Origin: a virus
Reading direction: 5' to 3' (one strand)
IMG/VR virus record: IMGVR_UViG_3300045988_117710
DNA length: 64,000 nt
The notes beneath the pieces are model-generated. The model was not told the origin of the DNA, searched no databases, and was given only the letters and a program-made list of their open reading frames with translations. This document shows positions 9,201 through 55,310 of this stretch, piece after piece. Position 1 is the first letter of the stretch; the number at the start of each line of letters is the position of its first letter. The translations under genes were made by a program, and so were the position numbers.

Positions 9201-10544
9201 ATGAATAATTTAGTGATTGCAAATCCCGAAAGGTTGGATGATCAGTCTTTTAAAATTACTATTGCTGGAAAAGACTATGAATATGAAATTTCAGAAGATA
9301 AGGATATTGATAAAGTAATAGCCAAGTTAGTTCAATGGATTTCAAGAGGAGATGATTCTTTTGGAGGGTTATATGATTATATTAAACGTAGTTTCCAATT
9401 AGTTGGTGAGTACGAGGAACCTGTTGTTGAAGATGAGCTTCCTGAAGAACCAAAATCTATCTTACCATCTGACGGTCAAGATTTAGATGATGTTCAATCT
9501 AATGAACTAGAATTCAAAGTAGATATACTTTCTAGTAGTGAAGTTAGTGTTTCTCTTGGAGAATTTTCTGCAGTATTTAATCTAGCTGGTAATGCAGATA
9601 ATTTTGAGACTGAGTTGAGAGAATTAATTAAAGATGAAATGACTCTTAAAGATAGAATTGATTTAAATACTTTTCTTGTTAAAGAACTCGATACTGATAA
9701 TTCAGTAGATGTTTATAATCTATCTGGTTTGGTTCTTGATCCAAACTTTGAGATAGTTTCTAGTGTTGAAGGTGAAGAACTTACAGATTTAGCTGTGGAT
9801 GGAGAACATGAAGTTCCAGATATTGTTATCGGTGATACAACAGATGAGGTTGATATTCCTAGTGATGATGCCGAGGTTGTTGATACTGAAGAAGTTGTGT
9901 CTGATGAAGATACAGAAGATGATTTAGAAGATGAAGCTCTTAATGCTGAAGAAGATTTAACAGATGATTATGAACCTAGTGAGGATGAAGAGTCTGAAGA
10001 GGATGATTCAGATGAAGAGGATGATGAAGATTCTAAATCAAAGAAGAAATCAAAGAAGAAATCTAAGAAGTCAAAGAAGAAATCGAAGAAGAAATCCAAG
10101 AAAGAATCTTATGATGCTTTTGGTAATCTCTTAACTGAAGATGAGGTGTTTGATGGTGTAATTGATTTACCTGTTGAACCAACTGAAATAGATTTTACAG
10201 ACGAAGAAGTCGAAGATAAGTTTACTCTTGAAGATTTAATTGTTTCTGAAGATTTCCTAAGTAGTTTAAGAGATTTAGGTTTATCTTTATTCAAATTTAC
10301 TAATAAGGATAATAATTTAGAGAATTTATACTTTGTTGGTGGTATTAATAGTAATGATGGTACTCTTTACACTTTAACCTACCAAATGGGAGATTCGTAT
10401 AGTACATTAGATGGAGAATTTGAAGATCTATCTACTAATGAATATGAACTATCTAATATTGAGGACTTAACTATTGTTACTAACTATTTAAGTAAGTTAT
10501 TAGATTTGGTTTATAATAGAGAGTTAGGAGAGGACAATGAGTAA
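9201..10544 (+). CDS. highly acidic protein with a central Lys/Ser (KSKKK) tandem repeat
   Basis: 447 aa, rich in Asp/Glu. A KSKKKSKKKSKKSKKKSKKKSKK block is flanked by DDSDEEDDED. Confidence 0.55.
   Translation: MNNLVIANPERLDDQSFKITIAGKDYEYEISEDKDIDKVIAKLVQWISRGDDSFGGLYDYIKRSFQLVGEYEEPVVEDELPEEPKSILPSDGQDLDDVQSNELEFKVDILSSSEVSVSLGEFSAVFNLAGNADNFETELRELIKDEMTLKDRIDLNTFLVKELDTDNSVDVYNLSGLVLDPNFEIVSSVEGEELTDLAVDGEHEVPDIVIGDTTDEVDIPSDDAEVVDTEEVVSDEDTEDDLEDEALNAEEDLTDDYEPSEDEESEEDDSDEEDDEDSKSKKKSKKKSKKSKKKSKKKSKKESYDAFGNLLTEDEVFDGVIDLPVEPTEIDFTDEEVEDKFTLEDLIVSEDFLSSLRDLGLSLFKFTNKDNNLENLYFVGGINSNDGTLYTLTYQMGDSYSTLDGEFEDLSTNEYELSNIEDLTIVTNYLSKLLDLVYNRELGEDNE
10034..10106 (+). repeat. 12-nt tandem repeat (aagaagaaatca)n encoding the KSKK units
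   Basis: Direct tandem repeats with synonymous third-position variation. Confidence 0.7.
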
Positions 10545-11400
10545 GAAGGTAATTAAGTCTGTTGATGTTTTAGACGATATAAGAGTAAATCCTGAAGAAG
10601 GTAAGAAGACAATTCTTAAGGTTATTGATAAGGATGAGAACAGAGAAGATAGAATGAAGTCAGCTGATTCTGCTGAAGTATTTCCAACTCCTGCTGAACC
10701 AGTTATTAATGAAGCTGTTAGTTCTACATTAAATCAAAATGTTAAGGATTATTTAATTCAAGATTTAACTAAAGAAGATTTTGTTGGTGATGAGGATGTT
10801 AAAGATGTTTTAGATAAGGTTGATATCTTTAAGATTCTTAATTCAGTTGATGGTGATTTAACTGAATCTTATGGTACTAACTATGGAGATATTAATATTC
10901 TATTCTCTAGAAGTTCTAAAGATTGTATCCGTGAGTCAGCTCTTATTGAATACTCTACTTCTGGTAATAAGTCATATGTTTTAGGACTTAATATTTTAGA
11001 AGCGGAAGATAATAAAGTTAACTTTATAGTTAAATCTAGTTATGGTGTTGATATTTATTCTAAAGTTTGTACACCAAATCAAATTGCTAATACTGTTTAC
11101 AGATTCTTGGAAGCAGTTTATTTAAGAGATAAGTTTGCAAGTATTCTTAATGAATCAGTTGATTCTGATAGATGGGGTGAAATCATTAGTGATGTTAATG
11201 AGTTTGCAAAGAATATAGATGCTGGTAAAGATGTTCTTAAGATTAGTTATTCTGAAGATAACTCTAAACCTTTAGAAGTTACTATTGCTAGAGGAACTAA
11301 TAATCAGGTATTCGATGATGTTAGAAAATATATAGAAGATACTTACAGAGATGAAGTTGAAATAACTGATATCGATGATTCAAGTTTCTTACTAAAGTAG
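10537..11400 (+). CDS. hypothetical protein
   Basis: Overlaps the upstream stop. 287 aa. Confidence 0.5.
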   Translation: MSKKVIKSVDVLDDIRVNPEEGKKTILKVIDKDENREDRMKSADSAEVFPTPAEPVINEAVSSTLNQNVKDYLIQDLTKEDFVGDEDVKDVLDKVDIFKILNSVDGDLTESYGTNYGDINILFSRSSKDCIRESALIEYSTSGNKSYVLGLNILEAEDNKVNFIVKSSYGVDIYSKVCTPNQIANTVYRFLEAVYLRDKFASILNESVDSDRWGEIISDVNEFAKNIDAGKDVLKISYSEDNSKPLEVTIARGTNNQVFDDVRKYIEDTYRDEVEITDIDDSSFLLK

Positions 11401-11415: not shown

Positions 11416-14400
11416 ATGAATGGTAATCAATTAATTACAAAGCATTCTGCTAAATTTGATACTGTTGAGAAATCTAAAAGACCTGGAGTTCTAGCTACTT
11501 TGAGAGGTCCTGTTACTGGATGGAAACCTAATCGTAATGGTAGAACTTATTCTAGGGATTTATGGGTTAAAGCATTAAATTCTGATTATGTTAAGGAACA
11601 AGTTGCTCTTAATCATTTTGTTGGTGAAGCAGATCACCCAGAAGAAAGACTTGAACCAGTAATTCAAAATATGTCACACGCTATGAGAGATTTTGAATTT
11701 GATGATGCTAATCAAGAAGTTATTGCTACTATTGATATTCTAGATACTCCATGTGGAAATATGCTTAAGACTTTATATGATTATTCTGGAGCTTTAAGTT
11801 TTTCTACTAGAGGTTCTGGAGATGTTTTAGAAGATGGTGAAGTTGATCCAGAAACATATCAATTATTTGCCATTGATGCTGTTTTAAGACCAAGTTATGC
11901 AACAGCTACTGTTAGAAATCTTTTAACTGAAAGTGAATCTTTACATAAGAATAAAGATGTTAAGAAGGTTCTTGAATCTTATTCTGGTGAGAAAGAATTA
12001 GATGAGTCTGTTGATTGGGATTATTTTAATATATTCCATGATATTAACGATAAATATTTACCTGATTCTGGTGAAGGTGATAATATGGCCACTCAAACTG
12101 TAACAGCTGTTAATAAGTTAGTTTATAAGTGGTATAATGATGGTGATGTATATGATAATTCAACTGCTTCTGGTCTAGATGGTTGGGGAAATGATTTATC
12201 TGATTATGCTAACTGGCTTGCAAAGAATATAGATGGTTGTAAGGATATTCTAGATAGAATTTTTGAAATCCATTATGGTGATAATGGTGCTTATGAAGAT
12301 TTACTTAAGGATTTAGCAAATAATTGTTTAGATGAAAATTTACTTTCTGGTTTAGCTACTCAACCTAAGGAAGGTTCTGTTTATGAATGTTCTGGTGATT
12401 ATTCTTTTGATGAGAGTAGAAACTATGATGAAGAATATGATGAGTCTGAAAACTTAGAAGAGGTTGTTCGTGTATACGATGATGAGAAAGATTATAGTTC
12501 TGAATTAGAGGAAGTATTCAATATTGTTGGTGGTTTTATTAATAATGATTTCAAATCTAATACCAAGGATTATTTAAGATATTCTGGTTCTACTGATCGT
12601 GTAGATAGTAGTAAAGTATTTGATGGTTTAGCTAGTGCATTAGGAGCTGCTGGTTATATTGTTTCTAAAGATCGTGTTTCTCATGCACATAATATTGGTA
12701 ACAATAATGCCTATGAAATATTCAAGGATTCTGAATGTATTGGATTCTTAAATGTTAATAGTGGTATGTATGGTGAAGCATATGTATATGTTGAGAACCT
12801 ATCTAATGGTAGAGTTGGTGGTGCTTGGGAATTACATTCTAGAGGTACTTCTACTTTCAAAGAAGGTGAAGAATTAGGTAAGGTTAATACTAAAACTGAT
12901 TTATCAAAGAAATATATCTTTAATGACAAGGGTGTTGAAAGAACTGTAACTGAAGTTGAACCACTTGCTTATAGAGATGGATATAAGTTTAGAGAGATTC
13001 TAGATAATGGTTCAGTAGGTAAAGTTGTTCATACTATGAGTAAAGCTGATTTTGATTCTTTAAAGGAATTAACTGAAGATGCTGATAGTGTTGTAGCAAT
13101 TCCTGATGATGTTAAGGAAGCTGTTGAAACTGAAGTTTATGATGATAGAAACATTGATGTTAGAAGTTCTATGTTCAAAGGTAATGATTTTGTAGTTGAA
13201 GCTAGAAATGAGTTATCTGAAGATGAATTTACTAAGATTGTTGATAGAATTCAATATCATTTCAATAATTATGGTATTGTTTATGACTCTATTGAAGATG
13301 ATGACAATAATGTAATTGCTATTGATTGTGGTATGTCTGCTAGTGCTTATGAAGAGTACAAAGCAAATTCTGATGATTATACTCTTAATGATGAATCATT
13401 TACTATGTATAATGCTGATACAGATAAAACTGTTAGAGTTTACAAAGATGGTGGTAAATGGGTAGATGAAGATGGTAATCGTTATATGAGTTACCTAACT
13501 AAGTCTGATATTAAGAAGTATTTCAAAGGTAATTGGGTTGAATTAGATGAGTCTGAACAATTAAATGAGTATGGTGATACTAAAGATTATTCAGAAGATA
13601 TTCAAAAGTTATTTAAGAAATGGTTTAAGGATAATGCTGATTTAGGTATTCGTGCTTGGCAGGCAATGACTGATTCATATCATTTAGATATTGAAACTAT
13701 GGATAAGGGTGAAGGTTCTGAAAGAAGAAAACTTTACAAGGTTGTTAATAATTCACCATTTGTTGAAGTTGAAGATTGGGCTGATGAGATTGGTGAGTAC
13801 ATTGCAGATAATTTACATTCATTAAAGTATATCAAACATACTTTCAATGATAAGTCATTCTTTAGTGATGATGAAACTGCTGGTGATATTACTTGGTACT
13901 TTGTTCAACAAATTGGTATGCCAGATTTTGGTGATAATATATTTGATTCAGAGAAGTTATCTGAAGACAATGAACCTAAGACTACTAAAGAGTTTAGAAT
14001 TATAGATACTGAAACTGGTAAGATTCTTAAGGTATTTAAAGATGATGAAGAATCTAAAGGTTATGAAGAAATGAGAGCCATGGGTGAAGAACTTAAGAAG
14101 GCAGGTAAAGAAGATAACTTAATCTATAAAGAGTTTAAGGTTAAGAACAAACCTGAAAGACTTAAGGAAGATTCTACTTGGGCTGAGATTATGATTGATA
14201 GAGCTTTAGAGTCTGGTGTTAGAAAGACACAATATCAAGATGTTGATGGTGTTAAGGATCAGTATTATGTAGTTGCTAATTTCCAAGACGTTGGAACTAG
14301 AGCAGATGCAAGAAAGTATTGTAAAGCTCAAGGATGGAGTGCTGTTAATGATTCTACTTTAGATAAGGGAGTTATGTATAGATATCCTTTAGTTATTTAT

Positions 14401-15249
14401 ATTCCTGCTGATAAGCTTCCAGATGGTGTTCAAGTAATTAATGAAGCTGGTGTTAATTTAGATGTTAGTGCTGGTGTTGATTTACCAGATGATGCTGTTA
14501 GTGGTATTATAAGTGCTCTACCTGCATTACTTGCTTCTGATAAACCAGATTTTGATACATTCTGTGAAGAGAATTATGAAGCAATTAATAATGCTTATGA
14601 TGAATGTAAGGCAAGTGATTTAGGTATTTCAGTAGAAGAGTATTGGGCTATGGATGAACCTGTAGATCCTAAATACTGGGAGATGGTTGCTAGAGATATG
14701 TATGAAGATAGTAATAGTTTAGTTGAAGATGTTAATGATTCTCAAGAATACATTGATAAATTCAATGAACTATATAGCAAGTATTGTGTTGCTAGTAAAG
14801 AAGATGAAGAAGTTATTAAGTCTGAAGTGGTTGATTTACTTACTAATGCACCTGTAGGAACTGCTTTATATAGACTTTATAAAGATACTTCTAGTGGATG
14901 GACTAGTCGTGGTTCTTATTCTAATACTAGAACTGAAATTCATGAATATCTAAAGTCAGGTGAAAATGAATGGACAATTAATGGTCGTAAGAAAAATGAC
15001 ATGAGAGATGCTATGTTATCAATCTTATATAATCCTGGAGAGTTCATGACTAAGGAAGAAGCAGAAGCTCAAAAGAAAGAGCAATCTAAGAATGATACTT
15101 CTTCTCGTAGAGAGATTGTAAATGTTGGTACTGATTCAGCTGGCAATCCTGTAGGTAAGTCTACTAATACTGTAACTTATCCAAATAGAGAAGTTGAGTC
15201 TGTTGATTTCTTGGATGATTACTTTGCATATCATAAAGGTAACTTCTAG
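11416..15249 (+). CDS. putative prohead protease fusion protein: N-terminal HK97-family (S78/U35-like) prohead serine protease domain plus a ~1100-aa acidic extension
   Basis: Residues ~20-135 fit the prohead-protease pattern: G-x-(A/V)-x-x-W...R-x-G-x-x-x-x-x-x-W-x-K-x-L, then L-N-H (candidate catalytic His67), then G-A-L-S-F-S-T-R-G (candidate catalytic Ser). The remainder is Asp/Glu-rich and scaffold-like. C-terminus DDYFAYHKGNF. Confidence 0.45.
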   Translation: MNGNQLITKHSAKFDTVEKSKRPGVLATLRGPVTGWKPNRNGRTYSRDLWVKALNSDYVKEQVALNHFVGEADHPEERLEPVIQNMSHAMRDFEFDDANQEVIATIDILDTPCGNMLKTLYDYSGALSFSTRGSGDVLEDGEVDPETYQLFAIDAVLRPSYATATVRNLLTESESLHKNKDVKKVLESYSGEKELDESVDWDYFNIFHDINDKYLPDSGEGDNMATQTVTAVNKLVYKWYNDGDVYDNSTASGLDGWGNDLSDYANWLAKNIDGCKDILDRIFEIHYGDNGAYEDLLKDLANNCLDENLLSGLATQPKEGSVYECSGDYSFDESRNYDEEYDESENLEEVVRVYDDEKDYSSELEEVFNIVGGFINNDFKSNTKDYLRYSGSTDRVDSSKVFDGLASALGAAGYIVSKDRVSHAHNIGNNNAYEIFKDSECIGFLNVNSGMYGEAYVYVENLSNGRVGGAWELHSRGTSTFKEGEELGKVNTKTDLSKKYIFNDKGVERTVTEVEPLAYRDGYKFREILDNGSVGKVVHTMSKADFDSLKELTEDADSVVAIPDDVKEAVETEVYDDRNIDVRSSMFKGNDFVVEARNELSEDEFTKIVDRIQYHFNNYGIVYDSIEDDDNNVIAIDCGMSASAYEEYKANSDDYTLNDESFTMYNADTDKTVRVYKDGGKWVDEDGNRYMSYLTKSDIKKYFKGNWVELDESEQLNEYGDTKDYSEDIQKLFKKWFKDNADLGIRAWQAMTDSYHLDIETMDKGEGSERRKLYKVVNNSPFVEVEDWADEIGEYIADNLHSLKYIKHTFNDKSFFSDDETAGDITWYFVQQIGMPDFGDNIFDSEKLSEDNEPKTTKEFRIIDTETGKILKVFKDDEESKGYEEMRAMGEELKKAGKEDNLIYKEFKVKNKPERLKEDSTWAEIMIDRALESGVRKTQYQDVDGVKDQYYVVANFQDVGTRADARKYCKAQGWSAVNDSTLDKGVMYRYPLVIYIPADKLPDGVQVINEAGVNLDVSAGVDLPDDAVSGIISALPALLASDKPDFDTFCEENYEAINNAYDECKASDLGISVEEYWAMDEPVDPKYWEMVARDMYEDSNSLVEDVNDSQEYIDKFNELYSKYCVASKEDEEVIKSEVVDLLTNAPVGTALYRLYKDTSSGWTSRGSYSNTRTEIHEYLKSGENEWTINGRKKNDMRDAMLSILYNPGEFMTKEEAEAQKKEQSKNDTSSRREIVNVGTDSAGNPVGKSTNTVTYPNREVESVDFLDDYFAYHKGNF

Positions 15250-15270
15250 GAGTTGCCTTTTTCTTTATTA

Positions 15271-15280
15271 TTCGTATAAT
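15271..15280 (+). promoter_or_regulatory. class-A promoter-like motif TTCGTATAAT
   Basis: Follows a T-rich tract after the stop of 11416..15249; 23 nt upstream of the AGGAGGAG RBS. Confidence 0.45.
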
Positions 15281-15302
15281 ATAGTAATTAGGAGGAGATT
15301 AT

Positions 15303-16388
15303 ATGAGTACTCATTGTGGTATAGGAATTAAACGTAAGAATGGTGCTGTTGATGCTACTTATTGTCATTTTGATGGATATCTTGATGGTGTTGGTGAGAA
15401 TCTTAAGAATTTCTTTAGAGATGCTGATAAGGTAAGTAATCTAGTTAGTATGGGTGATTTAAGAGGTATTAGTGATTCTGGTGAAGTTGAAGCTTTCGAT
15501 GATGAAGTTGGTTTTGATGACAAACATTTCAGATCTGTAGAAGAGTTTCTTCAAAGTGATTTAGGAACTTTAGAATATACTTATTTATTTGATGAAGATA
15601 CTAATAGATGGTATTTCCTAGGTGGAGAGGATCCAGAAACTGATATTTTTGATGGTTCTTTAGGAATGTATCATTTAGATAGAGAATCTTTAGAGGAAGA
15701 TGATAAGTCAACTTTCGAGATATTTAGAAGAACTTATCCTAGAGGACAAAATTCTTATGAAGTAGTTATTGATGAAACTATTTATAGAGATGGACGTGGT
15801 AGAAGACATAGTGACCATAAGACTTATAAGGTTTATAAGAATGGTGAACAAATTTTATTTACTTCAGTTCCTCAAACTTATAATAAGTGTTTAAGAAATA
15901 TTGAAGCTGGTAAGTATGATTTTATGTCTGTTAAAGAGATTTCTAATTCTCTTACTGGTGTTAATGAAAGTGAGTTCTATGTTAAGGAATTCAATCAAGA
16001 TGGAACTAATATAGATTATGTTGAGTTTGATAGTCAACATGAAGCAGAAGATTATGCAAGTTCTTTAAATAAGAAGACAGGACATGAAGTTGCTGTTTAT
16101 ATGAGTTCTAATGATGAATGTATTTCTCTTTATGATAAGTTAGATGAACATTCTTTAAAAGACTTAGTTGCTGATAATGATAGTGAGGCAATGAGAAAGT
16201 TAATTAGTTATTGTGAAAATTTTGGTACTAATGAAGTTTGGGAAGAAACTTTAAAACAATTACTAAAATATGTTTCTGAAGATGTTATTGAAAATTATAT
16301 TCATTATGAATTGAATGATTTAGTTTCTGATGAAGTTCCAGAAAGTATTACTGATGACTATTTTGATTTCCATAATGGAAATTATTAA
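15303..16388 (+). CDS. hypothetical protein sharing a C-terminal DDYF-x-FH-x-GN-[FY] motif with the upstream protease-fusion protein
   Basis: C-terminus DDYFDFHNGNY, compared with DDYFAYHKGNF in the previous gene. Confidence 0.5.
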   Translation: MSTHCGIGIKRKNGAVDATYCHFDGYLDGVGENLKNFFRDADKVSNLVSMGDLRGISDSGEVEAFDDEVGFDDKHFRSVEEFLQSDLGTLEYTYLFDEDTNRWYFLGGEDPETDIFDGSLGMYHLDRESLEEDDKSTFEIFRRTYPRGQNSYEVVIDETIYRDGRGRRHSDHKTYKVYKNGEQILFTSVPQTYNKCLRNIEAGKYDFMSVKEISNSLTGVNESEFYVKEFNQDGTNIDYVEFDSQHEAEDYASSLNKKTGHEVAVYMSSNDECISLYDKLDEHSLKDLVADNDSEAMRKLISYCENFGTNEVWEETLKQLLKYVSEDVIENYIHYELNDLVSDEVPESITDDYFDFHNGNY

Positions 16389-16414: not shown

Positions 16415-17887
16415 ATGAAATTATTAAGTAATGACAGACCCTTTGATGTTTGGTCTAAAGCAACTAGTATTCTCTATAGAGCTGTGGCGCATACTTTAGG
16501 TCCTAATGGTGCTAATACAGCTGTTGTATATGGAGATAGATTAGAATCTAATGCTAAGTTTAATATTATTAATGATGGTAAATCTATTATTGATAATTTA
16601 ACTAGTGAAGAAGCTGTTGTGGCTTGTGCTTTACAAACATTGAAAGAGTCTGTTCTTTCAACTAACAATAATGCAGGTGATGGTACTACTAGTACTATTG
16701 TTATGTTGCATGGTTTAGTTTCTGATTTGAATAATTATTTTGATGTTGATAAGGATTCTATTAAGTTATGTTCATTGGTTAGAAGAATCAAGAAAGAGTT
16801 ACTTGATATTCTTCCAAGTATTACTGAAGATGTGTCTATTGATGATGTTTTCAATATTGCAACTACCAGTTTAGGTTCTGATGAGTATTCTTCTTTGTTT
16901 GATGAAGCTTTCAGATTTGTTGGGGAGAATGGTAAGGTTCTTCTTGAGAGAACTACTGGTGATGAGTGTGTTGTTGAGAAGTTAGATGGTGTTTCTTTTG
17001 ATCGTGTTGGTCTTGTTGCAGAGTTACTTCTTGATGATATTGGAACTATTAATAAGACAGTTGATGCTAGGTCAATTATTCTAGATGGAGATATTTCTTC
17101 ATTCAGTCAGATATCAAAGATTCTTTTAGCAGGTAAGACATCTGATGTTCCTATTGTAATGTACTTTACGAAGATGACTCAAGAGGTTTTCCAATTGATG
17201 CTTCAGAATATTGTTAAGTCTGATATGAAGATAATTCCTGTTTCTCTTGAAGGTTATGGTCAAGAGAAAGTAAGATATATTAAGTTACTTGAATCTGTAA
17301 TTGGTCATGATGCTGTTAAGATTGGTGACTTGGCTGGGGTTCAAGATTTATCTGATGTGAATCATTATATTTTTAATTCTGATGCGATGATGGTTCGTCC
17401 ATTGGATATGGAGAAATTTGAGGAAGTAAAAGACCAATTAAGGTTGAATATTTCTTCAAAGACTGCTATTATTAAAGTAGGTGCTGGTAATGCTGTACTC
17501 CAAGAGGAATTATTCAAGAGATTTGAAGATGCTGTGTATTCAGTGTCAAATTCTCTTAAATTTGGTCGTTGTTTAGGGGGAGGGGTTAGTTATATTACTT
17601 TGGCAGATAAGTTTGCTGAAGGGGCTGATTCTTCGGTTTCTAGTTGGATTAAGAATGCTATGCGATGTGTATACAAGTTGTTACTTGAAAATTGTGATTT
17701 GACTTTTGAGGATAATGGTACTTATTTATTACCTAAGTTTGATGCTGAAACTGATTCTTGGTCTTTGAGTGATGAATTGGTTGTATATGATTCTTATAAG
17801 GTAATTGAGCAAGTAGTTTCCAATAGTTTTGATATGTTATACTCAATTCTATCGGTAAAAGCATTTATTCTTGATCCAAAACGTTAA
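16415..17887 (+). CDS. GroEL-like group I chaperonin (phage-encoded Cpn60 homolog)
   Basis: 490 aa. Aligns with GroEL at TLGPNGANTAVV (GroEL VTLGPKGRNVVL), NDGKSI (KDGVSV) and AGDGTTSTIVML (AGDGTTTATVLA), with a later GGGV motif. No GroES-like gene adjacent. Confidence 0.7.
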   Translation: MKLLSNDRPFDVWSKATSILYRAVAHTLGPNGANTAVVYGDRLESNAKFNIINDGKSIIDNLTSEEAVVACALQTLKESVLSTNNNAGDGTTSTIVMLHGLVSDLNNYFDVDKDSIKLCSLVRRIKKELLDILPSITEDVSIDDVFNIATTSLGSDEYSSLFDEAFRFVGENGKVLLERTTGDECVVEKLDGVSFDRVGLVAELLLDDIGTINKTVDARSIILDGDISSFSQISKILLAGKTSDVPIVMYFTKMTQEVFQLMLQNIVKSDMKIIPVSLEGYGQEKVRYIKLLESVIGHDAVKIGDLAGVQDLSDVNHYIFNSDAMMVRPLDMEKFEEVKDQLRLNISSKTAIIKVGAGNAVLQEELFKRFEDAVYSVSNSLKFGRCLGGGVSYITLADKFAEGADSSVSSWIKNAMRCVYKLLLENCDLTFEDNGTYLLPKFDAETDSWSLSDELVVYDSYKVIEQVVSNSFDMLYSILSVKAFILDPKR

Positions 17888-21026: not shown

Positions 21027-21090
21027 TATTTAGTTGGTATAGGTTTATGTAACTTTAGCCGAAAAGTTATAGAGGGAAGAGGTGTATATT

Positions 21091-23580
21091 ATGGCTCAAA
21101 ATAGTCAAGCATATCAACATTATATTCATGATGTTCCTGTGGATCCTGGTTTTCCTAGGGATTTTAAATTTATACTTGTAGAGAGTATAGAACAACTTCG
21201 TGAGTTGTTGTCTGAACCAGTTAATTTATTTGGTTTCGATATTGAAACTACAGGTCTTAATTCAGAGACTGATGATATAGTTTCATTTAGTTTTTGTAAG
21301 GAATCTCATGTTGGTTACAATGTTCCTGTTGACCACGATCCTGTTGTTAATGGTGGTAATCCTGGTCTTGGTGAGGAAGCATTGGATTTAGTTTATGAAT
21401 TTATGAGAGATAAAGCAAGATGGGTTGCAATTCACAATTTTGCTTTCGAATCTAGAATGATGGAGTGGCATGGGTTTACTTCACTAGATGATTATCATAA
21501 GAGAATGTGGTTAGGTTTGGAACCTTATGTAGAGAATGAATTCTTTACTCAAGACCAAGTTAGTCATTGTTTTAAGTATGATATGGGTAAGATTAATTAT
21601 TTTGATACTATGGTGTCATGTTGGTTGTCTGATACTAATGACCAAAAGACAGGGTTAAAGAAATATGAAGAGAAGTTTCTTGGTTGGCGTTCTAGTTCTT
21701 TCGAAGATACTTTAGGAGATAATGTCAATTTTAAGTTTACCAATTATCGTGATCCTTCAATTATTGAGTATACTTGTTTGGATGCCATTGGAGCTTTCAA
21801 TTTGGCAGTTAAAACTAAGAGATTTTATGATGAAGCAAAGACTTCTGGTAAGATTGATATGAAGTTTATTTATACTATTATGAGAGGTTCTACTTTATTA
21901 CAGAGATTAGACCCAGTGGTTCTTAAGAATTATGAGGATGAACTTTCTGAACATTTATATAAGTTAGAGCAAGAGTGTTGGTCTATTGCAGGTCAACCAT
22001 TTAATCTTAAGTCTCCAAAGGACAAGGCAAGAATCTTTGAATTGTTAGGTTTGAATACTGGTGAGGTTGGTAAAGCTGGTGTTATGAAGACTGGTAAGGA
22101 GTTACTTAACAAACTTAAGAAATCTTTGGATAAGAGTGATCCTAATTACAAGTTATTAGATAACATTACACAGTTTGGTATCTTATCAACTGTTAAGAAT
22201 ACATTTGTTAAGAATTTACTTAATGCTTGTGAGTCTGGTGGTTATCGTGAGAACTTTACTAGATTCAATTATAAGACTACTCATGTTCCTACTGGTAGAC
22301 TTTCAGCTGCTGGTGATAAGAAGAGTTTAGGTTTCTTCTCTGATTTAAATATTCAAAATATTCCTAAACCACATCCTGCAGATTATCATGCAATTTCTAT
22401 TCAAGATGCAATGAGATTGAATCCTGAATTAGTTGAGTTAGGTCGTGGAGATGAACCTGGTACATTTAAAGATGTTTGGTATTATCAAACATCTAAACGT
22501 AATTGTAAGATTGTTAGAATTATGGGTTGGTTGTTTACTCAAGTTTATTGGAAGAATATTGTTGTTGATGCTGATGGTCGTACAGAGAAGTGGCCTGATG
22601 ACTTTCCATTCAATAATGAGTTTGAGAATCCGATGATTGAAGAAGGAGCAGACCAACATTTAAATATTCGTTCTGCAATGTTACCTTTTGATGACGATGA
22701 TTATATTTTATCTCTAGACTATTCTGGTCAAGAGTTAAAAGCGGCGGCAATGCTTTCTAGGGAACCTGTATGGTTCGATGCTTTCGCTAATGGTGATGAT
22801 GCTCATAAGCAAACTGCCTATGCAATCTTTGGTAAAGAGAATTATGACAAAGAGAAGAGAAAGCTTGCTAAGGGATTAAACTTTGGTATTATTTATGGTA
22901 TGGAAGCATATTCTATTTATTCTAGGGGAATGGCAAAGACTCCAGAGGAAGCAGAAGATTTCTATACGAAGTTTAAGGATGGACTTCCTGTACTATTCAA
23001 TTGGCTTGATTCAGTTGTTCAGGATGGTAAGAATAATGGTACAGTTTATACTATGTTTGGTCGTCCTAGAAGAGTTAAGTATTGGCTTGATAATGATAAC
23101 TTTAAGTTTAAAGCATTTGGTGCTCGTACTTGTAAGAATACAGTAGTTCAAGGAACTGGAGCGGATATTACAAAGACAGCTCTTAATAGAGTATTTGATA
23201 ATGTTCTGAATGTTCCTAAGAATAAGACTATTGTTAGATTTATGTCTACAGTTCACGATGAAGTTAACTATTCTGTTAAGAAGAAGTATTTCTCTAGTGT
23301 AGCCAAGACTATCAATAAATTGATGACCATTTGGATTGGTTCTAATGATAGATTCCCATTTGATACTGGTCTAGGTATTGGTTTACGTTGGGGTGAGTTA
23401 TTTGACTTTGATTATGATAAGAAGACGTTTGATATCCTTCATCCTAAATGGGATCCACTTCCACCTAAACCTGTTGAGTATGTAGTTGAGAATTCTGAAG
23501 AGGAAGTTGTTGAAGAGATTACTTACGATTTCTCTAAAATGTTTGAAGGATTAGATGAGGAAGGTTCTAATGAATTCTAG
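21091..23580 (+). CDS. DNA polymerase, family A (Pol I-like), with N-terminal 3'-5' exonuclease domain
   Basis: Exo I FGFDIETTGL. Polymerase motif A LSLDYSGQELKAAA, motif B RKLAKGLNFGIIYGM, motif C VHDEV. ATG at 21091 after GAGGGAAGAGGTG. Confidence 0.85.
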   Translation: MAQNSQAYQHYIHDVPVDPGFPRDFKFILVESIEQLRELLSEPVNLFGFDIETTGLNSETDDIVSFSFCKESHVGYNVPVDHDPVVNGGNPGLGEEALDLVYEFMRDKARWVAIHNFAFESRMMEWHGFTSLDDYHKRMWLGLEPYVENEFFTQDQVSHCFKYDMGKINYFDTMVSCWLSDTNDQKTGLKKYEEKFLGWRSSSFEDTLGDNVNFKFTNYRDPSIIEYTCLDAIGAFNLAVKTKRFYDEAKTSGKIDMKFIYTIMRGSTLLQRLDPVVLKNYEDELSEHLYKLEQECWSIAGQPFNLKSPKDKARIFELLGLNTGEVGKAGVMKTGKELLNKLKKSLDKSDPNYKLLDNITQFGILSTVKNTFVKNLLNACESGGYRENFTRFNYKTTHVPTGRLSAAGDKKSLGFFSDLNIQNIPKPHPADYHAISIQDAMRLNPELVELGRGDEPGTFKDVWYYQTSKRNCKIVRIMGWLFTQVYWKNIVVDADGRTEKWPDDFPFNNEFENPMIEEGADQHLNIRSAMLPFDDDDYILSLDYSGQELKAAAMLSREPVWFDAFANGDDAHKQTAYAIFGKENYDKEKRKLAKGLNFGIIYGMEAYSIYSRGMAKTPEEAEDFYTKFKDGLPVLFNWLDSVVQDGKNNGTVYTMFGRPRRVKYWLDNDNFKFKAFGARTCKNTVVQGTGADITKTALNRVFDNVLNVPKNKTIVRFMSTVHDEVNYSVKKKYFSSVAKTINKLMTIWIGSNDRFPFDTGLGIGLRWGELFDFDYDKKTFDILHPKWDPLPPKPVEYVVENSEEEVVEEITYDFSKMFEGLDEEGSNEF

Positions 23581-26239: not shown

Positions 26240-26267
26240 ATTTTAGTTAATATTGAGGAGGATTTCA

Positions 26268-26576
26268 ATGAATAAGTTATTTGAATCTGTAGAAGGTTGT
26301 GACAAATATATTCTTTTAGAAAATGAATATCCTACTTCTATGAGTAGAGAGGAATATATTAGTACTTTAAAATCTAAAGTAAACAAGCTTGCAGATGAAT
26401 TTGCTAGTTTAGCTAATTTCTTTAATTCTTATATTGAAGATTCTGCTACTGGTGAAAGTATTGATTGTAATGAGTTTATTTGTATAGCTCAAGAAGAGTA
26501 CCCATTTGAAAATAGTTTTGATGAGAAAGCATATGAGTTTTCAAACTGGGCTGATAAGATTAATGAAATTAAGTAG
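26268..26576 (+). CDS. MNKLFES-leader family protein 1 (103 aa)
   Basis: True start is ATG 26268 after GAGGAGG (the track ORF begins at TTG 26253). N-terminus MNKLFESVEGCDKY. Confidence 0.6.
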   Translation: MNKLFESVEGCDKYILLENEYPTSMSREEYISTLKSKVNKLADEFASLANFFNSYIEDSATGESIDCNEFICIAQEEYPFENSFDEKAYEFSNWADKINEIK

Positions 26577-26585
26577 GAGGTAAAT

Positions 26586-29500
26586 ATGAACAAGTTATTT
26601 GAATCTGTTGATAATTTATTTGATTCTGGTAAGAGTCTTATTAATGAAGATTATCGTGATGATGTTATTAATGATTTAGGTATTGAACCTGGTTCTGATG
26701 AAGAAGCACAAGTTGATGAAATCCTTAATACAGTTCCAACTGTTTATGATGTTTTCACTTTATCTCAAGTTGATGTTAATGAGTATAAGTCAGATCTTTA
26801 TACTACTGTAGAAGATGAAGACCAAGCTTATGATATAGTTGCTGAACTTGGAGCTCAAGGTATTAATGCTTTTGTAGAAAGTAGAGATGCTAATGAAGAT
26901 GTTATAGTTCCTAACAATTTCTTATCTGGTCTTTATGCTAGGGATTTGAATGAATCTACTGAAGGGTTAAGTAAAGAAGATAAGATTTGTCGTTTAGAAG
27001 ATAAGATTAAGGAATGTAAAGATAGAATTGAAGAGATTGGTAATACTGAATTCTTCGATGATGGTTCTTATGAAGCAGGTTTAGAGTTAGAAGATAGAGC
27101 AATGGAAAGAGCTTCTCTTGAGTATGCTATTTCTGAATATCAAAAGGAAATAGATGAACTTAAAGGTGAAACTATTAATGAAGGTAGTAAGTTTGATTTA
27201 TATTCTATCAGAGGAGAAATCAGAGATGATGAAACTGGTAGATTAATGCTTCATACTAAGAATAAGAATAATGGGTTAGTTGGTTGTGCAAATTTCTTTG
27301 GTGATGGTTCAGATATGGTTACTGTTTACGAAGGTAATGGTGATGGTTCTGATGACAAGAGTATGGGATTCGATGAGTTCCTAGCAAACTATGATTATGT
27401 TCTTGCTGATGAAGATGAACAACCATTTGGTGTTACTGAAGCTTCTGAAGAGAAAGTATTTGTTAAGAAAGTTAAAGGTCCTAATGGTCAATTCTTTGAT
27501 GTTTATAAGAAAGATGGTAAGTTTGTGGATGAATATAATAATGAACTTACTGCAGAAGAATTAAAAGATTATAAGTTAGTTGAAGATGAATCTAATGGTT
27601 CTACTGCTATTTTATATCAAGTTACTCCTGGTAAGACTAGAGAATATGGTTTTGAATCTTTAAAGATGTTAGATAAGTTTGGTATTGAGCTTAGTTTAGA
27701 TAATTATACTGAAGTTGCTAATATTGATTATAGTAAGTATACAGATGCTACTGATACTAATGCAATTCTAGAAGCAATATTCAGAGAAGGTAATACTAAT
27801 CAAGATATGAGAGTTGAATTCCCTACTATGAGATCTGTTTCTATGTCTGATATTGTTTTATTAGATGGTAGATATTACTATTGTGATGACTTTGGTTGGA
27901 CAGATGTTACTGATCGTTTAACTGGTGTTAATGAGTCTGAAGGTGGAGATTTAAAATCTCAAGTTGTTGAGTATTTAACTTCTAAATATGGTGAAGGTTT
28001 TGAATTAGAAGACAATGTTAATGGTTTTACTAATCAAGATGAAATTATTGATTCTATTGTTAATTCTTATGAAGGAAATGAAAATTTAACTGTTGCTGAG
28101 TTTATAGATTCTTTAATTGAACCTCATGGTTTAATTGTTGTTAAGTCTAAAGGTTTATCTGAAGGTACTTCTGCTAAACGTATAGCAAGATATAATGAAT
28201 TTGATAATGGTAGAGTTTTACATTCTTGGAAAGATATGACAGATGAAGAAGCTGAAGAGCTTGCTAAACAAAAGTCAATTGAAGATCCAAATAATGTTTA
28301 TTATGTATGTAATGATAATGTTATGAATCCTACTTCTGATAAGGTTTGGTATAATGGTAAGTCTTATGATTTCAGTGATGTTAAGTTTAGTGAAACTGGT
28401 ACTTACTGTGAATCTGAAGAAACTGATCCTAGATTAGATACTTTTGCTGAGTTATATTATAAGTATCAAGATGGTGAATCTCATGAATGGACAAGAGAAG
28501 AAGTTATTGATTGGATTAATGATGAAATTAAGTTAGGTGATACTTCATTTACTTTAGATGATGAAACTATTGATTTATTATTAGGTTTCCAACATGATTT
28601 ACATCAAGCTGATATAGAAGATTTAGATGAAGCTTCTAAACCTTTAGTTAAAGATAAGTTCTATATTGATGGTGTTGGTCCAGAGTTTGATGGTTACCAC
28701 GATCCTAGTGTTCTTTGGAATGGTTGGGAATGTCCATTCTTTACTAAAGAGGTAGCAGATGAGATAACTAAAACTTTTACTGATGAGTCTGTTACTTTTG
28801 AATATGATGAAGCTGGTAAGAAATATATAATTACTTGGAATGGTGAAGATACTGAAGAAGTTCCTATGACACGTCGTGAAACTGTTGATGGTGAGTTAGA
28901 TTTATTCCCATTAGGTTATTATGGTTGGTGTTGGAATAAAGCTTCTGATGATTTAGAAGAGTCTAATAAATTAGATGAAACAGCTTGGAAGGGTACTCTT
29001 AAGTCTGGTTCTGCTTTAAGAGCCCTAATTAATAATCCAGATGATACTATTGAATATTATCAAGCTGTATTAGATAAGATTAAAGATGTTTGTAATGAAG
29101 CAATTCCAATGTGTGATGATGAATATTATGCTAATGGATTCCAATCTTTAATAGATGATATTGAATGTATTTATTATGATGAAGAATTAGATGAAGGTAA
29201 TGTTGATTATATTCTAGATGGTCTTTGGGATTGGGCTGATGGTGCTAAGTTATTCGTTGCCTTAGGTGAATCTGAAGTAGTTATGGAAGAAGATTCTAAT
29301 TATACTAATAAATATCGTTGTGTTACTGCAGGATATGATACTGTAGAAACATTTGATTCAAAGGATGATGCAATTGCATTTGCTAAAGAGAATGACAGGG
29401 TGTATTCAGTAATGTCTGATATTTATCAAGGTGATATGTTAATTAGTGTTGGATTAAATGATATTTGGTCTAAGTATGATGAAGATTTAACTGAAGCTTC

Positions 29501-29816
29501 TAGTGTAGATGGTTTAGTTACTAAGTTTGTTGAGTTACCATATGGTGATTTCAAAGCAAATAATGCCATTGGTGTTCTTAATGATGGTACAGTGTTTTGG
29601 GTAGATAGTGAGAATGAAGCTTATTCAGTTCCTTGTTCTTACGATGAGTTAAAGAGAGCAATGTATGGTAAAGAACAAGATGATTGGATGGAATTTTCTC
29701 AAAGTTTCACTAGAATAGAAGACCCACTAGAAACTAAGATTATGGTTGCTATTGGACGTTACTCTGAAGATGTTCTAGATTATCATGAAACTTTTAAAGA
29801 TGGGTTACCATTCTAA
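26586..29816 (+). CDS. MNKLFES-leader family protein 2, giant member (1076 aa)
   Basis: N-terminus MNKLFESVDNLFDSGKSLINEDYRDDVINDLG. Acidic, with a coiled-coil segment (ICRLEDKIKECKDRIEEI...). No recognisable catalytic motif. Confidence 0.6.
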   Translation: MNKLFESVDNLFDSGKSLINEDYRDDVINDLGIEPGSDEEAQVDEILNTVPTVYDVFTLSQVDVNEYKSDLYTTVEDEDQAYDIVAELGAQGINAFVESRDANEDVIVPNNFLSGLYARDLNESTEGLSKEDKICRLEDKIKECKDRIEEIGNTEFFDDGSYEAGLELEDRAMERASLEYAISEYQKEIDELKGETINEGSKFDLYSIRGEIRDDETGRLMLHTKNKNNGLVGCANFFGDGSDMVTVYEGNGDGSDDKSMGFDEFLANYDYVLADEDEQPFGVTEASEEKVFVKKVKGPNGQFFDVYKKDGKFVDEYNNELTAEELKDYKLVEDESNGSTAILYQVTPGKTREYGFESLKMLDKFGIELSLDNYTEVANIDYSKYTDATDTNAILEAIFREGNTNQDMRVEFPTMRSVSMSDIVLLDGRYYYCDDFGWTDVTDRLTGVNESEGGDLKSQVVEYLTSKYGEGFELEDNVNGFTNQDEIIDSIVNSYEGNENLTVAEFIDSLIEPHGLIVVKSKGLSEGTSAKRIARYNEFDNGRVLHSWKDMTDEEAEELAKQKSIEDPNNVYYVCNDNVMNPTSDKVWYNGKSYDFSDVKFSETGTYCESEETDPRLDTFAELYYKYQDGESHEWTREEVIDWINDEIKLGDTSFTLDDETIDLLLGFQHDLHQADIEDLDEASKPLVKDKFYIDGVGPEFDGYHDPSVLWNGWECPFFTKEVADEITKTFTDESVTFEYDEAGKKYIITWNGEDTEEVPMTRRETVDGELDLFPLGYYGWCWNKASDDLEESNKLDETAWKGTLKSGSALRALINNPDDTIEYYQAVLDKIKDVCNEAIPMCDDEYYANGFQSLIDDIECIYYDEELDEGNVDYILDGLWDWADGAKLFVALGESEVVMEEDSNYTNKYRCVTAGYDTVETFDSKDDAIAFAKENDRVYSVMSDIYQGDMLISVGLNDIWSKYDEDLTEASSVDGLVTKFVELPYGDFKANNAIGVLNDGTVFWVDSENEAYSVPCSYDELKRAMYGKEQDDWMEFSQSFTRIEDPLETKIMVAIGRYSEDVLDYHETFKDGLPF

Positions 29817-29829
29817 TTAGGAGGTTAGT

Positions 29830-30162
29830 ATGAATAGTTTATTTGAAAGTGTTGACGCTTGTTTTGAATCTGATGTTATAGTTGAATCAGATTCAAAACT
29901 TGGTTCTATTTTTGTTGCTGAGGTTGGTTACAATGGTGTAGTCGGTACTTGTAGAGGTGCTGGTTCTACTCCTGAAGAAGCCAAAGCAAATGTTATTAAA
30001 TTCTTCAAGCAAGTTTATCCTAGTGTATTAGAAGATTTATTAACTAAAGAAGATTATCAAGATGTTTCTGAAGATAAAGCTCTTGAAGATTGGTATGGTA
30101 TCAATGTATTCGATTTAAGTTCTGGAGCTACTTGTGAGAGTGGAGAAACTTTAAAAGGATAA
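29830..30162 (+). CDS. MNKLFES-leader family protein 3 (110 aa)
   Basis: N-terminus MNSLFESVDACFESD. RBS TAGGAGG. Confidence 0.6.
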   Translation: MNSLFESVDACFESDVIVESDSKLGSIFVAEVGYNGVVGTCRGAGSTPEEAKANVIKFFKQVYPSVLEDLLTKEDYQDVSEDKALEDWYGINVFDLSSGATCESGETLKG

Positions 30163-30165
30163 TTT

Positions 30166-30495
30166 ATGAATAAGTTATTTGAAAGTATAGATAATTTATT
30201 TGAATCTGATATTCTAACTCTAGATGACTTCCTTAGTCATCTAGATGCCTATATGGCAGAGCAATCTATTTTCTTTGAACCATTAGGTGGTTATATTGTC
30301 TATGATGGAGAGTATAGGTTTGTTTATTATGAATTATTAGATACTAATACAACTTATAGTCGTGATGCAAAGAGAAAGCATTATCGTATATTAAGTTATG
30401 ATGGTTCTACTTTTGTTGAGAATCGAATTACAGCTCCTATGTATAATGACTATATTAGATTAGGCATGGTTAGGGAGTATAGTAGAGAGGTATAG
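30166..30495 (+). CDS. MNKLFES-leader family protein 4 (109 aa)
   Basis: N-terminus MNKLFESIDNLFESD. Confidence 0.6.
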   Translation: MNKLFESIDNLFESDILTLDDFLSHLDAYMAEQSIFFEPLGGYIVYDGEYRFVYYELLDTNTTYSRDAKRKHYRILSYDGSTFVENRITAPMYNDYIRLGMVREYSREV

Positions 30496-30504
30496 GAGAT
30501 TATT

Positions 30505-55309: not shown

Positions 55310-55310
55310 T

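Follow-up and report, generated by a model that had tools for sequence, protein, structure and literature searches.

Why should the head protease of a phage carry an extension several times its own length, and why should the protein encoded next to it end in nearly the same peptide? We addressed these questions in a 64,000-nt stretch of DNA from a large gut phage (the window), which is the scope of all whole-stretch ORF comparisons and proteome statistics reported below. The two ORFs concerned, of 1277 and 361 aa, have the coordinates and the near-identical ending that a preliminary description of this DNA gave for them, and the GroEL-like gene that it noted 3' of the locus is confirmed by a Cpn60_TCP1 match. 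The features are as follows, with ↓ marking a cut or junction.

11416-15249, plus strand: protease-fusion ORF, 1277 aa
11416-11931, plus strand: prohead protease domain of T4 gp21 / Peptidase_S77 type, residues 1-172 (Pfam, phrog_207, 5jbl profile match)
11635-11637, plus strand: codon of predicted catalytic H74, aligned to the T4 gp21 H85 position
11803-11805, plus strand: codon of predicted catalytic S130, aligned to the T4 gp21 S140 position
11932-12006, plus strand: linker, residues 173-197, with candidate sites SE174↓S, VLE187↓S and LDE197↓SVD (motif listing)
12007-12420, plus strand: module 2, residues ~198-335, all-helical (WDYFNIFHD...YKWYNDGD...; recurrence, AF2)
12421-15198, plus strand: mosaic passenger region, residues ~336-1261, small alpha/beta and helical modules (HSP maps, AF2)
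15199-15249, plus strand: tail S1262-F1277 (SVDFLDDYFAYHKGNF) and stop codon, after candidate EVE1261↓S (motif, relatives, disorder prediction)
15303-16388, plus strand: second tail-bearing ORF, 361 aa
15303-16343, plus strand: body of the 361-aa protein, residues 1-347, modules A-D (phrog_1987, natural variants)
16344-16388, plus strand: tail S348-Y361 (SITDDYFDFHNGNY) and stop codon, after candidate VPE347↓S (motif, disorder prediction)
16415-17887, plus strand: GroEL-like chaperonin gene (Cpn60_TCP1, E=7.5e-25; phrog_5725, E=4e-43), context only

The protease gene has chaperonin, clamp-loader and DNA polymerase genes as neighbors, with the portal gene (33226-34989) 18 kb away and a family of proteins with a common MNKLFESVD... 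leader encoded at 26253-31002 and 53813-56153. We identified in the window neither a gp23-like major capsid gene, which could supply a partner for the tail, nor a separate gene for a scaffold. The close relatives L005 and L006 lack the 361-aa gene and have the GroEL-like gene immediately after that of the protease; the preliminary description had overlooked this absence.

The protease domain and its candidate cleavage sites

On profile and alignment evidence, the N-terminus of the 1277-aa protein is a real prohead serine protease of the T4 gp21 / Peptidase_S77 family. Residues 39-174 match Peptidase_S77 (PF03420) in the Pfam scan with 28.7 bits (E=1.1e-6; the Pfam cut-off is 27 bits), residues 3-210 match phrog_207, "head maturation protease," with E=8.7e-32, and a second PHROG match, phrog_3014, is likewise annotated only "head maturation protease." A profile built from 7 relatives also matches the T4 gp21 structure 5jbl (E=2.7e-9). 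The domain had been described as an HK97-family prohead protease of ~135 residues. Its identity as a prohead serine protease stands, given the S77 and phrog_207 matches, and HK97-type membership is rejected: the S78/U35 profile check suggested for the N-terminus, a Pfam scan at E≤1, gave no S78/U35 match and returned only S77 plus a weak DUF5866. The domain actually extends to about residue 172, where LLTE172↓S aligns with T4 KEITE↓S. Both H74 (GEADHP) and S130 (FSTRG) are invariant across the 7 relatives (alignments A1 and A2) and fall on the Ala-substituted positions 104 and 159 of 5jbl_A (offset 19; H85A/S140A), where wild-type T4 gp21 reads GELNHP and GVSSRG. The catalytic Ser proposed earlier, in ALSFSTRG, is this same S130, on the T4 S140 position, while the His proposed with it, H67 in LNHF, is rejected as variable in alignments of relatives, the conserved His being H74. 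The extension is indeed unusually long, at 1277 aa for the whole protein compared with a median of 543 aa and a maximum of 1151 aa among 77 complete IMG/VR relatives, and there are close relatives with a 220-aa or 423-aa protease and neither extension nor tail.

We infer from motif content that the protease cleaves itself and head proteins after Glu at L/x-x-E↓S junctions. The T4 protease cuts after L/I-x-E (PMC9026906). The earlier suggestion that the LFE leaders are linked to this protease fits, in that LFE↓S obeys the T4 rule and the E↓SVD of the protease linker is the same site as that of the MNKLFE↓SVD leaders and of the protease tail; T4 gp22, for its part, contains IFE↓SVN and PEE↓SVD. 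Across the window proteome, L.ES occurs 35 times (10±3.2 expected) and ES[VI]D 9 times (1.5 expected), the latter including five leader N-termini, E197↓SVDW and E1261↓SVDF. Model residues 1-14, which correspond to full-length residues 186-199 in the linker, have an AF2 pLDDT of <50. Within the 1277-aa protein, 8 of 12 L-x-E sites (p=0.014) and 6 of 9 x-x-E-S sites (p=0.034) fall in low-pLDDT linkers, against a baseline of 32% that Glu residues as a whole do not depart from (34%), a test made weak by the low confidence of the AF2 models (mean pLDDT 59 for the extension and 52 for the 361-aa protein). ES dipeptides show no excess within the 1277-aa protein (11 observed, 8.9 expected), and some module break points have no candidate cleavage site.

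A mosaic extension and its modular neighbor

The extension is a rapidly shuffling mosaic of small modules, a feature that the preliminary description had overlooked. At least 6 to 8 unrelated modules are joined in one polypeptide, with break points near residues 350, 481-497, 545-551, 689-712, 839-850, 1032-1042, and 1198 and with low-confidence linkers between them. HSP maps against P0001-P0018 show modules inserted, deleted, and reordered although the aligned regions are 92 to 97% identical, such that the length and content of the extension differ by hundreds of residues between near-identical phages. The AF2 models, of low confidence, predict alternating small beta-rich and helical modules, on which basis the extension is not a coiled-coil scaffold; it also has no similarity to the extensions of the SP-15 and GXN1 proteases. 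We found no internal repeats in the 1277-aa protein and no paralogous modules elsewhere within the window.

Database searches gave little to go by. Pfam, NCBIfam, and PHROGs searches with the passenger modules of both proteins yielded only phrog_1987, which has no annotated function, a Foldseek search of the PDB gave nothing below E=0.1 and just generic ferredoxin-like folds, and the Pfam, NCBIfam, and fold searches found none of the catalogued polyvalent effector or LPD domains in the 1277-aa protein. No module thus has a recognizable function or fold, so a reading of the passengers as cargo draws solely on their context. The most widely shared of them, module 2, is present at 49 to 68% identity in more than 30 nonprotease proteins, including the leader-bearing P0019-P0029, and in these it always stands directly after L-x-E-S/G/D/Q. 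It is modeled with a pLDDT of 84 to 92 and has a sole fold match, in BFVD, to the 176-aa stand-alone phage protein A0A8S5MLC3 (E=8e-10), with no Pfam, NCBIfam, or PDB assignment. In relative L010, a protein composed of leader and module 2 is encoded 4 kb from the protease gene. LPD11, a polyvalent-protein domain, is present only in a distant protease fusion, P0050, and the window's 1076-aa leader protein carries YodL.

The 361-aa protein is built in a similar manner, from modules A (residues 1-~125), B (~137-220), C (~221-275), and D (~280-345), with junctions at DRE↓S and VNE↓S. Module A is the phrog_1987 match (E=1.1e-20), and natural variants have the composition A+D (229 aa), A+B+D (308 aa), and A+B+C+D (361 aa). 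The model of the whole protein has no match in the BFVD fold library. Module D is, with module 2, one of two modules that recur elsewhere behind the leader; it does so in P0058, after MNKLFEAVDSL and without the tail.

The extension had been called acidic, and the 1277-aa protein is so (D+E 20.3%, pI 4.45), as, however, is the window proteome as a whole. The D+E fraction of the two tail-bearing proteins (0.20 to 0.22) lies within that of the leader proteins (0.17 to 0.27), and replication and tail proteins have 0.13 to 0.15. Strongly acidic proteins suit packaged DNA badly, which favors a degraded scaffold over cargo.

The shared tail and the competing explanations

The endings DDYFAYHKGNF and DDYFDFHNGNY are identical at 7 of 11 positions with two further Y/F swaps (consensus DDYF-x-[YF]-H-x-GN[FY]), and each follows a leader-like site, EVE↓SVD in the 1277-aa protein and VPE↓SIT in the 361-aa protein. 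In a six-frame scan of the window the motif was confined to these two C-termini; the runner-up among 2701 pairings of window ORFs had 4 identities in the final 11 residues, and shuffled proteins reached 7 identities in 1 of 300 trials. The tail codons differ synonymously between the genes (GAT/GAC, TAC/TAT, GGT/GGA, and AAC/AAT), which indicates conservation at the protein level and leads us to reject a recent DNA duplication. The shared ending reported earlier is thus a real, selected feature. We also reject a herpes-like nested gene, as the only in-frame internal start that has a ribosome-binding site is a weak one at residue 1211. Both tails are predicted to be disordered (AF2; residues 337-361 in the 361-aa protein), and L[DS]DYF-x-[FY]-HKGN[FY] is retained in P0015-P0018 despite differing upstream sequence. 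A HMMER search of 1.84 billion representatives with a tail profile (E≤0.001) retrieved this clade only, at a threshold that a bare 13-residue match would miss, such that other tail carriers are possible. A degenerate DNA pattern for the tail gave 0 matches in IMG/VR, and 2 matches in JGI metagenomes were dismissed as chance, lying inside unrelated bacterial-type ORFs. With its occurrence on two protein families only, the tail differs from the leader in being no general address label.

We hypothesize that the 1277-aa product is a self-processing protease-passenger polyprotein whose C-terminal propeptide docks it and its neighbor into the prohead and is then clipped, a reading for and against which we see the case as evenly balanced. 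The precursor would consist of the catalytic domain (1-172), an L-x-E↓S linker, ~1060 residues of passengers, and, after EVE1261↓SVD, a 16-residue disordered tail. This tail would be a C-terminal propeptide, the counterpart of the T4 gp21 tail after ITE↓S, that docks the precursor into the prohead core or shell, and the adjacent 361-aa protein would be recruited through the same tail. Other head-internal proteins of the phage would use the N-terminal MNKLFE↓SVD leader, equivalent to the T4 capsid-targeting-sequence route, and the active protease, cutting after Glu at L/x-x-E↓S, would free itself, separate the passengers, and clip the tails. The docking role suggested earlier for the ending fits the family by analogy, as T4 gp21 and most protease-scaffold fusions have a tail after x-x-E↓S. 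Given the fast turnover of the passengers and the presence of the same modules behind the leader in other phages, a scaffold that determines size is a less likely role for them than that of proteins, head-internal or ejected, engaged in an arms race with the host. A bolder version, which we advance only tentatively and think unlikely, is a two-address system of head loading in which the N-terminal LFE↓SVD leader and the C-terminal DDYFxxHxGN[FY] tail, both removable by the protease, draw on a common pool of modules, and the protease carries a string of modules that is released in the capsid and ejected as a protease-led polyvalent effector; such an architecture was not found in the literature searched.

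The extension could instead be a disposable scaffold or core, like the ~390-aa coiled-coil of SP-15 and GXN1 or T4 gp22, that is cut at L-x-E and leaves before the DNA, with the tail as a coat- or portal-binding end and the 361-aa protein as another core protein, its gene placed like T4 gene 22. We regard this as possible if rather improbable. It accords with the nearest characterized relatives, which are fusions of protease and coiled-coil beside the major capsid gene, with the conserved tail of the median, 543-aa relative, with an acidic composition like that of T4 gp22 and gp67, and with the window's want of an identified scaffold gene of its own; the order of protease and tail-bearing protein, moreover, mirrors T4 genes 21 and 22, the products of which both end with a tail after ITE↓S. 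It is harder to reconcile with an extension that is modeled, at low confidence, as modular rather than coiled-coil and that varies by hundreds of residues among near-identical phages, which is odd for a scaffold that determines size. The modules are present in many unrelated architectures, L005 and L006 do without the 361-aa gene, and the close relatives with the 220-aa or 423-aa protease do without extension or tail.

Two further explanations concern the tail alone. It might be a functionless remnant of module 2's N-terminal helix (ESVDWDYFNIFHDIN compared with ESITDDYFD-FHNGN), kept after truncation at a junction and spread likewise to an inserted 361-aa gene. The tail does resemble the start of module 2 at least as much as it does T4 or canonical tails: the 361-aa tail and the module 2 start in the same polyprotein are identical at 9 of 18 positions, similar alignments were obtained in a further comparison, and module junctions are recombination hot spots. 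We nonetheless consider this very unlikely, since every complete clade member has the tail precisely at its C-terminus, at ~80% protease identity and after unrelated upstream sequence, and the synonymous differences between the two copies indicate that the peptide is under purifying selection. Outside the clade, module 2 does not conserve the His of FHDIN, and the resemblance may therefore run the other way. Alternatively, the tail could be a recognition peptide for the adjacent GroEL-like chaperonin, or another noncapsid partner, marking two mosaic clients that are hard to fold. In all 3 tail-bearing genomes examined (the window, L005, and L006), the GroEL-like gene and that of the protease lie next to each other, the tail-less L007, L010, and L011 have no called chaperonin gene within 8 to 10 kb on each side, and the tail is rich in aromatic residues and predicted to be disordered. 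As these three tail-bearing genomes all come from one clade, the co-occurrence amounts in effect to one event, and tails after E↓S occur family-wide in phages without an adjacent chaperonin gene, T4 gp21 included. To our knowledge no chaperonin-binding motif resembles the tail, and a search of IMG/VR for relatives of the GroEL-like gene retrieved none. We judge a chaperonin tag highly improbable and prefer the protease-passenger polyprotein.

Comparison with known systems

T4 gp21 belongs to the same family, has the same catalytic His and Ser positions, and likewise ends in a tail after E↓S, in ITE↓SQTAEADTSADDAYMALAEAMKKAL. Its tail DDAYMALAEAMKKAL and DDYFAYHKGNF are both acidic and then hydrophobic, a loose likeness (DD-Y-hydrophobic-A-hydrophobic). 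At 212 aa, however, gp21 is far shorter than the 1277-aa protein, in which ~1060 residues of unrelated modules separate catalytic domain and tail, and the gene here is, unlike that of gp21, far from the portal gene and beside replication and chaperonin genes. Both gp21 and Alt are C-terminally processed, and their propeptides have been proposed to target proteins to the prohead (PMC9026906); targeting by a C-terminal propeptide was likewise inferred for SPN3US gp245 (PMC5694885).

Closer in architecture are SP-15 gp031 (568 aa, Bacillus phage), GXN1 (558 aa, Streptococcus phage), and fusions on many IMG/VR contigs, which have an N-terminal S77 domain with 38 to 46% identity. These protease-scaffold fusions, from T4-like and jumbo phages, have many L-x-E-S sites and a tail located ~20 to 30 residues after x-x-E↓S, a site of the kind that also precedes the tail of the 1277-aa protein (EVE1261↓S), and dozens of those in IMG/VR end in x-x-E↓S followed by ~20 residues and DDxLLxLAGLK, where the motif here is DDYFxxHKGNF. 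Their extensions are of about 350 to 450 aa, coiled-coil, and adjoin the major capsid gene, whereas the extension described here is 2 to 3 times longer, globular-modular, and hypervariable. In none of the protease-scaffold relatives examined is the tail shared with a neighboring gene. Such sharing has a parallel in the herpesviruses, in which UL26 joins a scaffold to a protease from the same fold superfamily and UL26.5 carries the same C-terminal tail. It is this tail that binds to the major capsid protein, and the protease cuts it off at the maturation site. In the herpesviruses the two proteins come, nested and in frame, from a single gene, whereas the genes here are separate and share only 11 to 14 residues.

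The capsid-targeting sequence of T4 offers a further parallel: a variety of proteins are sent to the prohead by short peptides, which are then removed by cleavage after L/I-x-E. The MNKLFE↓SVD leaders of the window look like targeting sequences of this type. T4 Alt is trimmed at both ends (PMC9026906), and its C-terminus reads KVE↓SSLGIIAS.... The address on the 1277-aa and 361-aa proteins differs from the T4 targeting sequence in being C-terminal and common to the protease itself, and the same modules occur behind either address in different phages. How gp21-type proteases enter the prohead, and the role of the C-terminal propeptide, is a gap even for T4 (PMC9026906). The lineage described here amounts to a natural experiment, with the same short tail on a protease, 1060 residues from its catalytic domain, and on an unrelated neighbor, and with close relatives that lack the tail, the extension, or both; the targeting hypothesis is thus directly testable. 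In phage engineering, where the N-terminal T4 targeting sequence is in use, a C-terminal tag of 14 to 16 residues with which to load foreign proteins into capsids would be its complement.

The mosaic content of the extension also recalls the polyvalent proteins of phages and of conjugative elements, described as very large and multidomain with extremely mosaic orthologues; release of the domains by a built-in peptidase has been proposed for them, as have packaging into the head and injection (Iyer et al. 2017, PMC5512222). They resemble the 1277-aa protein in joining several unrelated domains in architectures that are mosaic among orthologues, and they differ in their usual processing enzyme, a zincin-like metallopeptidase where a prohead protease is found here; the passages of Iyer et al. 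2017 (PMC5512222) consulted contain no gp21-type protease at the head of a polyvalent protein. If the passengers are ejected, the locus would be a source of uncharacterized, fast-evolving candidates for host takeover or antidefense in jumbo phages abundant in the human gut. Taken as a whole, the system looks, by analogy, like an enlarged form of the T4 practice of packing proteins into the head and trimming them afterwards.

Genome setting and the protease domain

The window DNA is AT-rich (31% G+C), comes from a large, myovirus-like phage and carries essentially all of its genes on the + strand, with a strong and uniform positive GC skew (0.16 to 0.40 in every 2-kb bin of positions 1-64000). 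The features needed here are as follows (both ORFs had been exactly placed and sized in the preliminary description).

11416-15249, + strand: protease fusion ORF, 1277 aa
15303-16388, + strand: tail-bearing neighbor ORF, 361 aa
33226-34989: T4-type portal
56164-57669: tail sheath

Further recognizable genes encode a baseplate wedge protein, a DnaB-like helicase, a family A DNA polymerase, a clamp loader and a UvsX-like recombinase. Public assemblies made independently contain copies of the two ORFs that are 97 to 99% identical, on contigs as long as about 180 to 197 kb, so the long ORF is not an assembly artifact; one related ∼180-kb contig originates from a Hadza human-gut sample. Among related loci, the family A polymerase of L006 (17307-22055; 1582 aa) contains intein and LAGLIDADG homing-endonuclease domains, while the PHROG matches of the 832-aa window polymerase (21082-23580) include none that are intein related; a related ∼197-kb phage contig has a free-standing 290-aa Hint/intein-like ORF (L001/L002, 6738-7610).

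On sequence evidence, the first ∼172 residues of the 1277-aa protein form a T4 gp21-family prohead serine protease. An HK97-family assignment had been proposed, but the Pfam scan gave no match to HK97-type S78/U35 profiles at E ≤ 1, and Peptidase_S77 scored above its cutoff instead (28.7 bits; cutoff, 27), with a further match to phrog_207, "head maturation protease" (E = 8.7e-32). A profile built from seven relatives matched the T4 gp21 crystal chain 5jbl (E = 2.7e-9), in which GELNAP and VASRG replace the GELNHP and VSSRG of wild-type T4; the chain thus carries H85A and S140A. These two positions align with H74 (GEADHP) and S130 (FSTRG) of the 1277-aa protein, neither of which varies even in relatives as distant as 34% identity. 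The candidate catalytic serine earlier placed in ALSFSTRG therefore stands, whereas the histidine proposed in LNHF (H67) is not conserved among relatives and gives way to H74. The domain ends at LLTE172↓S (↓ marks a candidate cleavage site), aligned with KEITE↓S of T4.

A long, mosaic extension

In 77 complete IMG/VR relatives the protease ORF is at most 1151 aa long (median, 543 aa), and the characterized relatives, SP-15 gp031 (568 aa) and the protein of Streptococcus phage GXN1 (558 aa), join a protease to a coiled coil and are encoded next to the major capsid gene. Fusion itself is therefore the norm and 1277 aa the extreme of the length distribution, in keeping with the earlier remark that the extension is unusually long. 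Compared with 18 homologous protease fusions, whole extension blocks are present, absent or reordered (among them residues 351-480, 689-850 and 1033-1197), even where the aligned regions are 92 to 97% identical. The AlphaFold model of the extension, only indicative given its mean pLDDT of 59, consists of small modules, helical or alpha/beta, with linkers of low confidence between them and no coiled coil seen. Searches of Pfam, NCBIfam, PDB and BFVD assigned no family or fold to any extension module.

Module 2 (residues ∼198-335; pLDDT 84 to 92) was found in >30 otherwise unrelated proteins at 49 to 68% identity, including proteins with MNNLFNELD... leaders, proteins with N-terminal zinc ribbons and a 176-aa stand-alone phage protein. 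In the related locus L010, the gene for a protein that joins a leader to module 2 is located 4 kb upstream of that for a 423-aa protease and is directly followed by one for a 1004-aa protein with PT-HINT (12741-15755). A distant protease fusion (40% identity) has the domain LPD11, which was defined in "polyvalent proteins" (PMC5512222), and the 1076-aa leader protein of the window (26586-29816) contains YodL (E = 1.6e-8), another domain of that class.

The 361-aa protein is likewise mosaic, with natural variants of 229, 308 and 361 aa that differ by whole internal modules; phrog_1987 (function not assigned) matches only its first ∼110 residues. Its penultimate module reappears at 68% identity in a tail-less 228-aa protein of another ∼197-kb phage, which starts MNKLFEAVDSL. 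The 361-aa gene is missing from the related loci L005 and L006, where the GroEL-like gene directly follows the protease gene. Both loci do keep the two ORFs upstream of the protease gene (9201-11400), one encoding a strongly acidic protein of 447 aa (D+E, 29%) that includes a KKSKKKSKKSKKKSKKKSKK run and the other a 287-aa protein containing ILNE↓SVD; these could be core or scaffold components.

In L010 (15796-18296) and L011 (7438-10364) the protease (423 and 220 aa, respectively) lacks the tail; homologues of two ORFs of the window, 47377-47907 (MRALFKPEDGN...) and 50367-50825 (MKTSFDVAV...), flank it. The protease gene of the window lineage seems to have been relocated by some 36 kb, into a slot upstream of the GroEL-like gene.

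The shared tail and candidate cleavage sites

Only the last 11 to 14 residues of the 1277-aa and 361-aa proteins are significantly similar. Their final 11 residues are identical at 7 positions (next best, 4 among 2701 window ORF pairs; 7 reached in 1 of 300 trials with shuffled proteins), and a six-frame scan found the motif nowhere else in the window. L[DS]DYF-x-[FY]-HKGN[FY] stands at the exact C terminus of four divergent fusions (P0015-P0018) whose upstream sequence is unrelated, and the tail-coding DNA of the two genes differs at synonymous sites. The shared motif of the preliminary description is thus not due to chance. Both tails are predicted to be disordered, and a Glu-Ser bond immediately precedes each (EVE1261↓SVDFLDDYF... 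and VPE347↓SITDDYF...). The 361-aa tail also resembles the stretch where module 2 begins, junction plus first helix (9 of 18 identical; ELDESVDWDYFNIFHDIN at 12007-12060 versus EVPESITDDYFD-FHNGN at 16335-16385). Possible reasons for the likeness are primed-side preferences of the protease common to both, an origin of the tail in a truncated module 2, and mimicry.

Among IMG/VR relatives the C terminus is widely conserved as an (I/V)-x-E↓(S/A) site followed by about 20 to 25 residues, closing with an acidic run plus a hydrophobic motif, usually DDxLLxLAG(L)K (loci L012-L090). T4 gp21 follows this design too, KEITE↓SQTAEADTSADDAYMALAEAMKKAL (…ITE↓S…DDAYMALAEAMKKAL), as does the scaffold encoded by the adjoining gene 22, with a tail after TITE↓S (…ITE↓S…EDIVSVYAKVASRF; T4 locus L092, 949-2427). 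We found no description of the LLxLAG(L)K design of protease-scaffold fusions in the literature examined. Given this family-wide pattern, the window tail (DD-Y-F-A-Y versus DD-A-Y-M-A-L) seems to be this lineage's own form of an old feature. None of roughly 65 distinct IMG/VR loci has a neighboring ORF sharing the protease tail, and the second tail-bearing protein is the unusual element of the window locus.

The window leader family begins MNKLFE↓SVD(N)LFE↓S. Seven window ORFs have MNKLFESVDNLFES-like starts (26253-31002, 53813-56153 and 38684-40336), at an internal Met in those beginning at 26253 and 53813, and are alike only over roughly their first 20 residues. ORF 53813 probably begins in reality at the Met near 53861. 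The leader of ORF 38684-40336 is a variant, MNNFYDSIDKVDF, that resembles those of the leader-bearing module-2 proteins P0019-P0029.

T4 gp21 cleaves after Glu in L/I-x-E (PMC9026906), and T4 gp22 itself contains IFE↓SVN and PEE↓SVD. The window proteome contains 35 L-x-E-S sites (10 ± 3.2 expected from shuffles) and 9 ES[VI]D sites (1.5 expected), the five leader sites among the latter being homologous and thus not independent.

ES[VI]D sites in the window proteome
Five sites: leader N termini
E197↓SVDW: start of module 2
E1261↓SVDF: start of the tail
Two others: one in the upstream 287-aa protein

Within the extension, 8 of 12 L-x-E sites (p = 0.014) and 6 of 9 x-x-E-S sites (p = 0.034) fall in low-pLDDT linkers, against a baseline of 32 to 34% for Glu residues overall. 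This enrichment is suggestive rather than strong. ES is not overrepresented in the whole protein (11 versus 8.9 expected) and the models are weak.

A candidate self-processing polyprotein

We hypothesize, with about even confidence, that the 1277-aa product is a polyprotein of protease and passengers, able to process itself, with a removable propeptide at the C terminus as its docking element. The precursor would process itself into protease and passengers, the neighboring 361-aa protein would use the same C-terminal address and the leader family an N-terminal one. The main alternative, that the extension is a bulky degradable scaffold, draws on the architecture of relatives, the acidity of the extension and a gene order like that of T4 21-22. 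We consider it rather unlikely: the modules turn over fast, are globular rather than coiled coil in the model and recur in unrelated architectures, and close relatives have a tail-less protease of just 220 or 423 aa. It is very improbable that the tail is a functionless recombination stub or a chaperonin-client signal.

In T4, gp21 and Alt undergo C-terminal processing, and their C-terminal propeptides have been suggested to target proteins into the prohead, with removal breaking core contacts (PMC9026906); a similar prohead-targeting role was inferred for the propeptide of SPN3US gp245 (PMC5694885). S77 proteases, protease fusions, C-terminal propeptides, targeting leaders and mosaic polyvalent proteins are all known kinds. 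What is new is their combination: a prohead protease heading a very long, fast-shuffling chain of candidate passengers, encoded by a gene apparently relocated away from the head genes, with a tail common to a separate mosaic protein.
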